UHGV virus genome: UHGV-0188240
DNA length: 18,499 nucleotides
Source: a virus
Strand: one strand, 5' to 3'
Shown: piece by piece, positions 1,250-10,505 of the stretch
Layout of the letters: every line of letters starts with the position of its first letter
Position numbering within the stretch: the stretch's first letter is position 1
The notes under the pieces: model-generated
Told to the model about the DNA's origin: nothing
What the model saw: the letters and a program-made list of their open reading frames with translations, nothing else
Database searches by the model: none
Made by a program: the position numbers and the translations under genes

Positions 1250-1356
1250 AGGCCTCACCTCCGATTTTCCGGATGGTGCTGTGTGTGTATGAAAAGGATC
1301 AGGCTTCACTGGCTGGATTTTCAACAAAGCACGTAGTGATTGATTCCCGTGAGCCT

Positions 1357-1382
1357 GAAATAAAAAACCCGCTCAAGGCGGG
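1357..1382 (-). terminator. candidate intrinsic terminator between the tRNA pair and the holin
   Basis: Minus-strand hairpin CCCGC-cttga-GCGGG followed by TTTTTTATTT. Confidence 0.4.
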
Positions 1383-1438
1383 AATGTTAGGGTGTGGCAA
1401 TGTCAGCTCTGCGGCTGAAGATACCCTGGCTGGGTTTT

Positions 1439-1514
1439 TGGTGCCGGTTAACGGATTTGAACCGCTACCTATTCACTTACAAGGCGACCGCTCTACCATT
1501 GGAGCTAAACCAGC
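1439..1514 (-). tRNA. tRNA-like gene, 76 nt, anticodon UGU (Thr-like), encoded CCA
   Basis: Manual fold of reverse complement: acceptor GCTGGTT/AACCGGC (one G-U), D-arm GCTC/GAGC, anticodon loop CTTGTAA, T-arm AGCGG-TTCAAAT-CCGTT, discriminator A then CCA; one G-A mismatch at the top of the anticodon stem. Confidence 0.6.
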
Positions 1515-1519
1515 ATGTT

Positions 1520-1594
1520 TGGCGGGACAGCGTGGACTCGAACCACGATAAGAAGGTTAACAGCCTTCCGTAATGACCTTTATACGACTGACCC
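1520..1594 (-). tRNA. tRNA-like gene, 75 nt, anticodon GUU (Asn-like), encoded CCA
   Basis: Manual fold: anticodon stem GAAGG/CCTTC with loop CTGTTAA, T-arm CGTGG-TTCGAGT-CCACG, acceptor GGGTCAG/CTGTCCC with one T-T mismatch, 3-bp D-stem; lies 5 nt upstream of the other tRNA on the same strand. Confidence 0.55.
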
Positions 1595-1640
1595 AAATAA
1601 AAAAAGCCACCGTTGCAACTTAAGAGTCACTAACGGCAGC
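1595..1640 (-). terminator. candidate tR' intrinsic terminator of the late leader
   Basis: Minus-strand stem GCUGCCGUU / AACGGUGGC (9 bp with two G-U) around a 17-nt loop, followed by UUUUUUUAUUU; sits just downstream of Q and the candidate late promoter. Confidence 0.45.
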
Positions 1641-1644
1641 TTAT

Positions 1645-1680
1645 GCGAATAGTGTTGCTCATTTGCTCAATGATGTCAAC
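1645..1680 (-). promoter_or_regulatory. candidate late promoter pR' / Q-utilisation region
   Basis: Perfect -35 TTGACA on the minus strand (plus 1674-1679) a few nt after the Q stop; no convincing -10 hexamer found, so placement is tentative. Confidence 0.3.
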
Positions 1681-10172: not shown

Positions 10173-10505
10173 ATGGATGCACAAACACGCCGCCGCGAAC
10201 GTCGCGCAGAGAAACAGGCTCAATGGAAAGCAGCAAATCCCCTGTTGGTTGGGGTAAGCGCAAAACCAGTTAACCGCCCTATTCTCTCGCTGAATCGCAA
10301 ACCGAAATCACGAGTAGAAAGCGCACTGAATCCTATAGACCTTACGGTGCTAGCTGAATACCACGAACAGATTGAAAGCAACCTGCAACGTATTGAGCGC
10401 AAGAATCAGCGCACATGGTACAGCAAGCCACGCAGTGAAATGGGTGTGACTTGCTCAGGCCGCCAGAAGCAACGCGGAAAATCAATTCCAGCTTATTACG
10501 ATTGA
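10173..10505 (+). CDS. N: antiterminator N, lambda type
   Basis: MDAQTRRRERRAEKQAQWKAANPLLVGVSAKPVNRPILSLNRKPKSRVESALNPIDLTVLAEY matches recalled lambda N including the Arg-rich boxB-binding motif; C-terminus diverges. Confidence 0.9.
   Translation: MDAQTRRRERRAEKQAQWKAANPLLVGVSAKPVNRPILSLNRKPKSRVESALNPIDLTVLAEYHEQIESNLQRIERKNQRTWYSKPRSEMGVTCSGRQKQRGKSIPAYYD

Follow-up and report, generated by a model that had tools for sequence, protein, structure and literature searches.

Why should temperate lambdoid phages retain exactly two tRNA genes, one for asparagine and one for threonine, in the leader of the late transcript? Several genome papers have asked this, and the question returns with the 18,499-nucleotide stretch of viral DNA analysed here (UHGV virus genome UHGV-0188240), which we call the window and in whose coordinates all positions are given. 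As a sequence feature the locus is ordinary, since it is annotated in model phages and in E. coli genomes. Work on tRNA-cutting nucleases gives the question a concrete test, in that the anticodons match those of the targets, the determinants of cleavage are changed and one allele has experimental support. The reading that we prefer, with a probability of roughly 0.55, is that the window holds a phage 21-type late-control region with a known cassette, whose tRNAs would serve as nuclease-resistant spares and, secondarily, as additional decoders of ACA codons.

Results

All features described in what follows are on the minus strand unless stated otherwise. Immediately upstream of the locus lies the gene for a Q antiterminator of the phage 21 family (1686-2174, 162 aa), which is identical to phage 21 Q at 158 of 162 residues (98%) and matches Pfam Phage_antitermQ with E = 1.1e-24. 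The first-pass annotation had proposed a pR' -35 element here, and the hexamer TTGACA can indeed be read directly at 1679-1674; the phage 21 feature 'minus_35_signal pR' late promoter' maps onto it (window position = 3186 minus L001 coordinate, the conversion by which phage 21 features were placed), and the stretch is identical in both. The phage 21 annotation also places the pR' -10 element, AACACT, at 1651-1656 in identical sequence, and homology to phage 21 suggests a putative transcription start at about 1644, with a sigma-dependent pause element at 1637-1643. Between the -35 and the -10 lie the repeats of the Q-binding element (QBE), ATTGAGCA and AATGAGCA (1656-1671), identical to the QBE in OL657228, and the tR' hairpin comes next, which is the layout of a phage 21-type module. 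The intrinsic terminator tR' (1595-1642), also proposed beforehand, consists of a long hairpin and the T-tract TTTTTTTATTT (1595-1605). Its hairpin folds at -20.2 kcal/mol (z = -6.1), far above chance (0 of 200 shuffles fold equally well), and the phage 21 and Sf6 records annotate it as a terminator. The tRNA-Asn gene starts at the base right after the T-tract of tR', which leaves no space for a promoter of the tRNAs' own, and a promoter scan of positions 900-2300 found none, its sole site being weak and located inside Q.

The two small genes that follow are real, conserved tRNA genes for asparagine and threonine. Namely, tRNA-Asn(GUU) occupies 1520-1594 (75 nt) and tRNA-Thr(UGU) 1439-1514 (76 nt), each with an encoded CCA, and between them lies a spacer of exactly 5 nt, AACAT (1515-1519). 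ARAGORN calls both with these anticodons on this strand, and the Rfam model RF00005, whose gathering score is 29 bits, matches them over its full length (model positions 1-71) with 55.3 and 55.4 bits, respectively (E about 3e-11 for both). In other words, the two tandem genes on the late-transcript strand between Q and the holin, their anticodons, the 5-nt gap and the encoded CCA had all been read correctly by the manual fold of the first-pass annotation, and the tRNA calls stand far above chance. Its count of one stem mismatch in each gene needs a correction: it applies to tRNA-Thr, where G27·A43 is the single true mismatch besides G·U wobbles, and not to tRNA-Asn, where there are two non-standard pairs, U4·U69 and U13·U22. 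The only irregularities peculiar to the rare threonine allele carried by the window are the wobbles U3·G70 and G30·U40. E. coli AsnRS recognizes G34, U35, U36 and G73, and E. coli ThrRS recognizes G1-C72, C2-G71, G35 and U36; every one of these identity elements is found in the window tRNA sequences. Open reading frames that cross the tRNAs on the plus strand (1273-1551, 1394-1573 and 1515-1652) were treated as chance ORFs.

After the last tRNA comes a structured trailer, similar to a 3' external spacer (1383-1438), with an internal hairpin at 1403-1418. Homologues of this trailer occur in Klebsiella phage Mulock and in other arrays, whichever tRNA comes last in them, and the hairpin shows compensatory changes in three of five pairs, with 93% of cells paired and a score matched by 0 of 500 shuffles. 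In the MAFFT alignment the outer stem of the trailer and the arms of the terminator were one column out of register, and for this reason only the internal hairpin was formally counted, the rest being folded singly. The Hfq-binding small RNA isrK (RF01394) was rejected as the identity of the trailer (16.1 bits against a threshold of 50, E = 0.53); its sub-threshold match, which spans 1362-1444 and lies chiefly within the terminator, led us to recognize the span as a conserved structured trailer. The second terminator-like site (1358-1382) has a 5-bp G+C stem, CCCGC-CTTGA-GCGGG at 1382-1368, followed by the T-tract TTTTTTATTT at 1358-1367. A terminator before S had thus been rightly noticed, though the site is weak (-8.4 kcal/mol, z = -2.2), and the terminator scan by itself does no better than chance (2 found against 1.5 expected). 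Mulock, mEp237 and three sampled loci (L058, L071, L098) have a hairpin in the matching place with different stem sequences. The protein-coding part of the late operon begins with the gene of holin S (926-1249), which belongs to the lambda family (Pfam Phage_holin_3_1, E = 8.5e-30) and has a dual-start motif (MKM...), and in the nearly identical prophage of E. coli EC2001 the gene is annotated 'phage holin, lambda family'. The holin comes 189 nt after the tRNAs and a toxin gene is absent, just as the first-pass annotation had noted when it saw no space for one.

Judged by homology, this module is one already known, which the first-pass annotation had not recognized, namely a phage 21-like late-operon tRNA cassette that is annotated in many phages and that the NCBI pipeline marks in several hundred E. 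coli genomes. In phage 21 itself (OL657228, AJ237660), the counterpart of window positions 1685-1439 is 98% identical without net indel, with the same gene order, the same 5-nt tRNA spacing and identical -35, QBE, start site, tR' and tRNA-Asn. The phage 21 tRNA-Thr matches that of the window at 71 of 76 positions (the five changes are A26G, C40U, G45A, G58A and A70G), and the homology stops exactly at the tRNA-Thr CCA: downstream of it phage 21 has another trailer and the S21 pinholin, whereas the window has the Klebsiella-phage-like trailer, the second terminator and the lambda-type holin. Sf6, SfI, BTP1, HK446 and many P22-like or lambdoid phages and prophages carry the Asn-Thr pair in the same position between Q and lysis genes with 93-97% identity, and in order, spacing, place and homology to phage 21 and Sf6 the window has the lambdoid late-leader cassette. 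In this group Q and QBE are of other types (Sf6 or lambda), and the trailer is in most cases that of phage 21. Sf6 and HK446 share the 5-nt spacing, the HK446 tRNA-Asn equals that of the window (75/75), and its tRNA-Thr equals the phage 21 allele (76/76) and matches the window allele at 71 of 76 positions. Mulock-type Klebsiella arrays (Asn-Phe-Thr-Arg) have homologous tRNA-Asn and tRNA-Thr genes that differ by compensatory changes, and their trailer (about 70% identical), terminator position and holin leader are homologous to those of the window; they differ in having four tRNAs instead of two, another Q-region gene and another upstream terminator. Stx phages such as 933W carry the tRNA genes ileZ-argN-argO upstream of stx. 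The resemblance to the tRNA position in Stx phages remarked on beforehand holds in the general arrangement, with tRNAs in the late leader downstream of pR' and tR', and the Q21-Asn-Thr module itself occurs in some Stx2 phages; the 933W tRNAs, however, are for Ile and Arg rather than Asn and Thr, and the window has no toxin gene.

To describe the family, we sampled 126 loci or arrays, with 124 tRNA-Asn and 111 tRNA-Thr copies. The cassette sits behind at least four types of late promoter and terminator, lambda-type tR' among them. Of the 119 loci with a classifiable downstream sequence, 91 have the phage 21-type trailer; Arg-UCU, Gly-UCC and Phe-GAA are the other tRNAs found in the sampled arrays. 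The tRNA pair alone is present in 369 of 5,426 complete E. coli genomes (about 7%), a figure that we prefer to the 851 genomes returned by a 521-nt query, which extended into Q and the holin. The full combination seen in the window is rare, reaching at least 80% query coverage in only 2 of the 5,426 genomes and occurring in 4 of the 126 sampled loci. Within the family, six pairs of tRNA-Asn and eight of tRNA-Thr have changed on both sides, while 90% and 94.6% of cells, respectively, remain paired; for both tRNAs the covariation score is reached by 0 of 500 shuffles, and slid controls collapse to 21-53% paired. Each tRNA keeps its anticodon loop unchanged almost throughout, in 123 of the 124 Asn copies and in 110 of the 111 Thr copies. 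The irregular pairs recur family-wide (U4·U69 in 16 of 18 distinct Asn alleles, U13·U22 in all 18, G27·A43 in 21 of 22 distinct Thr alleles). The tRNA-Asn of the window is the commonest allele, identical in 88 of 124 sampled copies, and its tRNA-Thr is a rare one (3 of 111). Covariation, frozen anticodon loops, varied promoter contexts and wide occurrence together argue that the tRNA pair is kept by selection.

Which selection this may be is suggested by the targets of two nuclease systems. [quoted passage not shown] It cuts between positions 40 and 41 (U36-AAUC|A41), and cleavage is abolished by U39->A, inhibited by A41->C and impaired by U16->C (PMC12409363). P2 OLD depletes tRNA-Thr(UGU), tRNA-Gly(UCC) and three other tRNAs (10.64898/2026.07.10.737580). 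The anticodons of the window thus match host tRNAs targeted by AriB and OLD in the case of Thr(UGU) and by AriB in the case of Asn(GUU), and the further OLD target Gly(UCC) is present in alternative arrays at the locus. Both window tRNAs retain the anticodon loop in its host form, CUUGUAA for Thr and CUGUUAA for Asn. At the determinant positions, host thrU reads UAAUCA with U16, whereas the window tRNA-Thr reads UAAGUG (G39, U40, G41) with A16; host asnT reads UAAUCC (U39, C40, C41) with U16, and the window tRNA-Asn reads UAACCU (C39, U41) with A16. U39 is missing in 122 of the 124 Asn and 109 of the 111 Thr copies, and at least 98% of the copies sampled are altered at the AriB determinant positions. 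G39 is likewise present in Thr(UGU) of P7, N4 and T5, and in two of these phages, P7 and N4, tRNA-Thr is accompanied by tRNA-Asn. P7 tRNA-Asn, however, retains UAAUCA, a point against the counter-defence reading.

Discussion

That the two genes are pseudogenes or decaying remnants without present function, riding along with the Q21 module, had been offered in the first-pass annotation and seems to us very improbable. Non-standard pairs are indeed present in the stems, and truncated or chimeric copies exist in relatives (L005, L103 and L114). However, a genuinely decayed copy looks different, as in E. coli C236-04A, where the tRNA-Thr ends after about 29 nt; in the window the tRNA model gives each gene 55 bits, their helices have been kept intact through compensatory changes, the mismatches are conserved traits of the family and not damage, the tRNA-Asn matches the commonest allele exactly, and the closely related HK446 tRNA-Thr has biological activity. 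We give equally little credence to the idea, raised for HK446 by the authors of the OLD preprint (10.64898/2026.07.10.737580), that the tRNAs make up for a host tRNA gene that the integrating prophage has damaged. HK446 does insert at thrW, a tRNA-Thr gene. The closest relative of the window, EC2001, on the other hand, sits by ybhC, in the lambda attachment region and not at a tRNA gene, the cassette is spread over many phage backbones and Q types, and the accompanying tRNA-Asn would be left unexplained. What is more, thrW encodes the CGU isoacceptor, whereas the cassette encodes UGU. Given the EC2001 site and the HK446 evidence, we dropped integration as a general explanation. Rather improbable, too, is a role in which the tRNAs and the trailer act mainly as RNase P and RNase E signals that free the pR' leader, fix where the lysis and structural mRNA begins and how stable it is, or yield a small RNA from the trailer, with decoding being incidental. 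Some 3' external spacers of tRNA operons in E. coli act as small RNAs, and the trailer is laid out like such a spacer; the tRNAs adjoin tR' without any gap and are followed by the conserved structured trailer and a terminator, and the authors of the phage L study regard excision of the tRNAs from the late mRNA as undecided (PMC8022706). Yet such a role needs no invariant anticodon loops, synthetase identity elements or encoded CCA, the same two anticodons recur in unrelated phages, and the 91 loci with a phage 21-type trailer have a different trailer altogether.

Codon supplementation alone, in which more decoders of ACA and AAY codons would speed phage protein synthesis and nuclease resistance would be irrelevant, deserves more weight, but is in our view still unlikely. 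In the ORFs of the window ACA stands at 17.6 per 1000 codons and makes up 36% of Thr codons, as against 6.9-8.6 per 1000 and 14-16% in 46 K-12 genes, i.e. an enrichment of 2-2.5 times in a set of mostly early genes. The companion tRNAs at the locus (Arg-UCU, Gly-UCC, Phe-GAA, and the Leu-UAA tRNA that phage L carries there; PMC8022706) decode codons that are rare or A/U-rich, AAC accounts for 24 of the 25 Asn codons of the phage L capsid gene (PMC8022706), and SfI was reported to have the same ACA bias without a clear bias in its Asn codons (PMC3636060). On the other hand, the surplus belongs to early genes: since the window stops at Rz, late-gene codons were taken from its nearest complete relative, E. 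coli EC2001, where ACA is near the host level (10.3 per 1000). The comparison shows no clear bias in Asn codons either, and E. coli already has four tRNA-Asn genes. The codon comparison is thus mixed, and the initial suggestion that the tRNAs tune translation of late or AT-rich genes is weakly supported, by the ACA enrichment in early genes and not clearly for late genes or for asparagine. Codon supply also leaves unexplained why frozen anticodon loops stand beside near-universal changes at positions 16, 39 and 41, and why over-expression of E. coli Thr(UGU) gave no phage rescue from OLD, whereas HK446 Thr(UGU) restored plating of OLD-sensitive phages (preprint 10.64898/2026.07.10.737580). We find counter-defence better supported than codon supply.

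Two of the three target anticodons of the anti-PARIS tRNA-Lys, tRNA-Thr and tRNA-Asn of T5 are common to the cassette of the window, and in both cases the anticodon loop is unchanged and substitutions fall at U39, at 41 and at D-loop position 16; the tRNA genes of T5, however, form an early cluster served by promoters of its own, whereas the window comes from a temperate phage with tRNAs behind a Q-controlled terminator. T5 tRNA-Lys is necessary for bypass of B185 PARIS. ARAGORN found no tRNA-Lys in the window, and none of the 126 arrays sampled has one, so that the Lys, Thr and Asn set for B185 PARIS is incomplete, and Asn and Thr alone would probably not defeat this system; among the literature that we searched, no paper ties the lambdoid Asn-Thr cassette to PARIS. 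As for anti-OLD phage Thr(UGU) tRNAs, the HK446 allele is active, and resistance of the window allele, which differs from it at five positions, is predicted. The OLD preprint tested only the tRNA-Thr of HK446, a phage that it describes as having a single tRNA; it credits the escape of HK446 to the protein Oad2, the tRNA being perhaps an adaptation to lysogeny, and it reports that one viral Thr(UGU) neither rescued lambda nor relieved OLD toxicity (10.64898/2026.07.10.737580). It should also be noted that the window tRNAs are identical to those of the host at 48 of 76 (Thr) and about 44 of 76 (Asn) positions, with differences throughout, so that foreign ancestry, and not selection for resistance, may account for the changes at 16, 39 and 41. 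Finally, if tRNAs behind tR' are made only late, they can neither aid the ACA-rich early genes nor counter early activation of a nuclease.

How might nuclease-resistant spare tRNAs then be made and used? RNA polymerase that starts at the constitutive pR' would halt at tR' unless modified by Q21, and N-modified polymerase coming from pR may read through tR' as well. Host RNase P, RNase E and 3' exonucleases would excise the tRNAs, and host AsnRS and ThrRS would charge them. The departures from the host sequence fall in the anticodon stem and D-loop, at positions used by OLD-family Toprim tRNases, and tRNAs that differ at these determinants would therefore be expected to survive PARIS AriB or P2 OLD. 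Late protein synthesis could then continue in spite of the loss of the host copies, and added decoding of ACA, over-used in the phage genes of the window, would be a side benefit. The nucleases in question, AriB, P2 OLD and their relatives, come from P2 prophages and P4 satellites that share E. coli with these phages. One can go further and propose that the lambdoid Asn-Thr cassette is a module dedicated to countering OLD-family Toprim tRNases, having lost the nuclease determinants and kept the host loops, and that in the window, where the array has its own trailer and terminator, leakage through tR' could supply resistant tRNAs without holin expression; this more specific proposal we put at somewhat less than an even chance. 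If it is true, a very common prophage element becomes an anti-defence gene, which would change how competition among phages, prophages and satellites in enterobacteria is read and how prophage tRNAs are annotated. As regards expression in a relative, 'the two tRNA genes' of BTP1 are set aside in the list of highly expressed prophage genes from its transcriptome, and the start of the BTP1 lytic operon is placed directly after them (PMC7067206).

Results

The two tandem genes in the late leader of the window are almost certainly functional tRNA genes of a known lambdoid cassette. ARAGORN calls tRNA-Asn(GUU) at 1594..1520 and tRNA-Thr(UGU) at 1514..1439, both on the minus strand, with a gap of 5 nt between them and CCA encoded in both, and each matches the Rfam tRNA model over its full length (55.3 and 55.4 bits, respectively, against a gathering score of 29). 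On the same strand, a pR' -35 element, TTGACA, is read from the sequence 5' of the tRNAs at 1679..1674, followed by tR', a long hairpin with a T-tract (1642..1595; -20.2 kcal/mol, z = -6.1), and a consensus scan places a second terminator 3' of the tRNAs (1382..1358), namely CCCGC-CTTGA-GCGGG plus TTTTTTATTT, the hairpin of which is weak (-8.4 kcal/mol, z = -2.2). The cassette is flanked by a Q-family antiterminator gene (1686-2174) and a lambda-family holin gene (926-1249), with lysozyme and Rz next. All the elements listed in the first-pass annotation, i.e. the -35, tR', the tRNA pair and the second terminator, are thus present, its anticodons agree with the ARAGORN calls, and one of the predictors that it had proposed takes both genes to be tRNAs.

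Between 1685 and 1439, the minus strand shares 98% identity with phage 21 and SfI, and the net indel is 0. From the stop codon of Q through the last base of tRNA-Asn, the window and phage 21 do not differ at all, and their Q proteins are identical at 158 of 162 positions. At the matching positions, the curated phage 21 record lists the pR' -35, a Q-binding element (ATTGAGCA/AATGAGCA), the -10 and the start site, and continues with a sigma-dependent pause element, the tR' terminator, tRNA-Asn and tRNA-Thr. The Sf6 record labels its Asn/Thr pair "similar to phage 21", the SfI paper reports the pair in Sf6, ST64T, PS3 and phage 21 (PMC3636060), and the phage L paper treats tRNAs at the same spot, leaving unsettled whether they are excised from the late message or transcribed from a promoter of their own (PMC8022706). 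Finally, a query with the pair only finds it in 369 of 5,426 complete E. coli genomes, where it is annotated by the NCBI pipeline. Given the annotations in phage 21, Sf6 and SfI and those of the NCBI pipeline, the element is already known and not new.

Scanning viral contigs for the tRNA-Asn D-arm gave 120 loci, to which reference loci and the window were added. In this sample, which is biased in that an exact D-arm word was required at every locus, the arrays are Asn-Thr (100), Asn-Gly(UCC) (7), Asn-Phe-Thr-Arg(UCU) (5), Asn alone (5) and a few others; the window carries the commonest tRNA-Asn allele (88 of 124 copies) and a rare tRNA-Thr allele (3 of 111). Measured on distinct alleles, six pairs in tRNA-Asn and eight in tRNA-Thr are changed on both sides, standard pairs fill 90% and 94.6% of the cells (33-53% and 21-48% in slid-partner controls), and for neither gene does any of 500 shuffles match the covariation score. 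The single stem mismatch originally ascribed to each gene holds for tRNA-Thr (G27·A43), while tRNA-Asn has two, U4·U69 and U13·U22. These imperfections are family-wide features, present in 21 of 22, 16 of 18 and 18 of 18 distinct alleles, respectively. The suggestion that the genes are decaying remnants is therefore rejected, in view of the scores of 55 bits, the compensatory changes and the family-wide mismatches. A remnant or pseudogene looks otherwise: in E. coli C236-04A (1008-1040 of the sampled locus), and likewise in ECONIH5, tRNA-Thr stops after about 29 nt with unrelated sequence beyond, next to an undamaged tRNA-Asn and holin leader, which is a truly decayed copy of the cassette.

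Only U3·G70 and G30·U40 in tRNA-Thr are peculiar to the window allele. The former is intermediate between U3-A70 of phage 21 and C3-G70 of the Klebsiella type. Since the 3' part of the gene has G70 and T-loop A58 in common with the Klebsiella type and homology with phage 21 stops exactly at the CCA, the allele looks like a recombinant formed inside the tRNA gene. In one IMG/VR locus (L114), tRNA-Thr is chimeric, with 25 nt of phage type at the 5' end and a 3' part equal to host thrU, and another (L103) appears similar on a cursory comparison; this suggests that the phage gene recombines with chromosomal thrU.

The module 3' of tRNA-Thr is about 70% identical to Klebsiella phages, and from the T-tract onward it matches the mEp237, HK225 and Louie holin leaders at about 90% identity. 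In Klebsiella phage Mulock, an Asn-Phe-Thr-Arg array occupies this position and precedes a trailer homologous to that of the window, and one trailer layout is common to nine loci from E. coli- and Klebsiella-type phages, regardless of the last tRNA. Within the trailer (1383-1438, minus strand), an internal hairpin (1403-1418) has compensatory changes in three of five pairs, with 93% of cells paired and 0 of 500 shuffles as good, which for nine sequences is suggestive of conserved structure; 3' of it comes a terminator, the stem of which varies in sequence between lineages. The order of last tRNA, external spacer and intrinsic terminator is reminiscent of how bacterial tRNA operons end, and trailer and terminator might give rise to a small RNA some 80 nt long. 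A below-threshold Rfam match to isrK covers exactly the trailer span. Further on, a long-range inverted repeat, CAGGCTCAC ... GTGAAGCCTG, lies in the holin leader (1299-1357, minus strand) and is also kept in mEp237 and Mulock; its fold does not clearly stand out from those of shuffled sequences (z = -1.8).

The exact combination seen in the window occurs at 4 of 126 sampled loci and in 2 of 5,426 complete E. coli genomes. Therefore, the bracketing by terminators described earlier is true of this rare recombinant, but not of the cassette in general. The T-tract TTTTTTATTT is found on the minus strand at 1595-1604 (tR') and 1358-1367 (terminator 2), and also closes the lambda-type tR' of HK446 and the mEp237 terminator before the holin leader, which suggests that T-tracts may be the short homologies where the cassette and its modules swap between phages.

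Discussion

How would the tRNAs be expressed? The first base of tRNA-Asn directly follows the tR' T-tract, and neither a promoter scan nor the sequence reveals a promoter-like site between the two. With no spacer and no promoter, the tRNAs would have to come from polymerase that has passed tR'. Q21-modified polymerase from pR' could read through tR' into the tRNAs. Alternatively, N-modified polymerase from pR could reach them before Q acts, which is possible because the prophage has its own lambda-type N gene (10173-10505, plus strand; Pfam N36, E = 1.6e-26), and a small unmodified fraction may escape tR'. In general, tRNAs mature through cleavage by RNase P and RNase E and are charged by the synthetases of the host, and the cassette tRNAs would be expected to follow this route.

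As for their role, translation tuning had been proposed. In the 38 window ORFs, ACA accounts for 17.6 per 1000 codons and 36% of Thr codons, as opposed to 6.9-8.6 per 1000 and 14-16% in 46 K-12 genes. However, the window ORFs are mostly early genes, while in the late genes, taken from E. coli EC2001 as the nearest complete relative, ACA stands at 10.3 per 1000, and there is no clear bias in Asn codons. The codon pattern of SfI is the same (PMC3636060). Codon supply is therefore possible, but a weak explanation. The best-supported mechanism among the readings is that a pair of nuclease-resistant replacement tRNAs would be supplied from the start of the late transcript, and we put the probability that counter-defence is the main selected role of the cassette at roughly one half. 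According to a July 2026 preprint (10.64898/2026.07.10.737580), P2 OLD cuts after nt 27-29 and depletes the tRNAs Thr(UGU), Gly(UCC), fMet, Val(UAC) and Pro(UGG). Thr(UGU) of HK446, a lambdoid phage, or of T4, Bas32 or Bas33 rescued OLD-sensitive phages, whereas E. coli Thr(UGU) did not. The preprint credits HK446 with a single tRNA; directly 3' of its lambda-type tR' there is an unannotated Asn-Thr tandem (NC_019714 35097-35252; 5098-5253 of reference locus L130), the tRNA-Asn of which seems to have been overlooked. This tRNA-Asn is identical to that of the window (75/75), and the tRNA-Thr matches the phage 21 allele at 76/76 positions and the window's at 71/76. Thus, the family's commonest Thr allele has experimental anti-OLD activity, and resistance of the window's tRNA-Thr is a suggestive prediction from a relative differing at 5 of 76 positions. 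Moreover, the tRNA that can replace Thr as the partner of Asn at this locus is Gly(UCC), which OLD also targets (Asn-Gly arrays L014, L037, L086, L104 and others); this phage tRNA-Gly is identical to host glyT at 71 of 75 positions, differing mainly by the loop change A38->G (CUUCCAG vs CUUCCAA). That said, a single Thr tRNA neither rescued lambda nor relieved OLD toxicity, and the escape of HK446 itself is ascribed to the protein Oad2 (10.64898/2026.07.10.737580).

PARIS AriB bears on counter-defence as well. In E. coli, AriB acts on tRNA-Lys(UUU), Thr(UGU) and Asn(GUU), which it depletes and cleaves. The cut falls between positions 40 and 41 in U36-AAUC|A41; it is abolished by U39->A, inhibited by A41->C and impaired by the D-loop change U16->C, and PARIS is inhibited by the Lys, Thr and Asn tRNAs of T5 together (PMC12409363). 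The window tRNAs have the anticodon loops of their host counterparts (CUUGUAA in tRNA-Thr and thrU, CUGUUAA in tRNA-Asn and asnT), while positions 36-41 read UAAGUG vs UAAUCA in thrU and UAACCU vs UAAUCC in asnT, and position 16 is A in both phage tRNAs and U in both host ones. In the sample, U39 is absent from 122 of 124 Asn and 109 of 111 Thr copies, and every phage Thr(UGU) examined, including those of P7, N4 and T5, has G39 instead of host U39. On the other hand, the cassette lacks tRNA-Lys, the main target of AriB, P7 tRNA-Asn retains UAAUCA, and phage and host tRNAs differ at about 40% of positions overall, so that the differences at the three named positions are suggestive, not decisive. 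The literature searched contains no link between the lambdoid cassette and PARIS, although such a search cannot prove absence. All in all, the cassette is of low-to-modest discovery value, and is of more interest as an immediate way of testing a long-standing question.

The pairing of tRNA-Asn(GUU) with tRNA-Thr(UGU) is also seen in the unrelated coliphages P7 (P1-like; 1423-1576 of locus L132) and N4 (1327-1576 of L133). In the EC2001 prophage, the closest complete relative, genes for an integrase, AlpA and an Icd-like protein and a DUF927 primase-like gene (30560-37076 of L006) are located inside the late structural genes. This block has the appearance of a P4-like satellite residing within its helper, an arrangement that has been described (PMC10111431).
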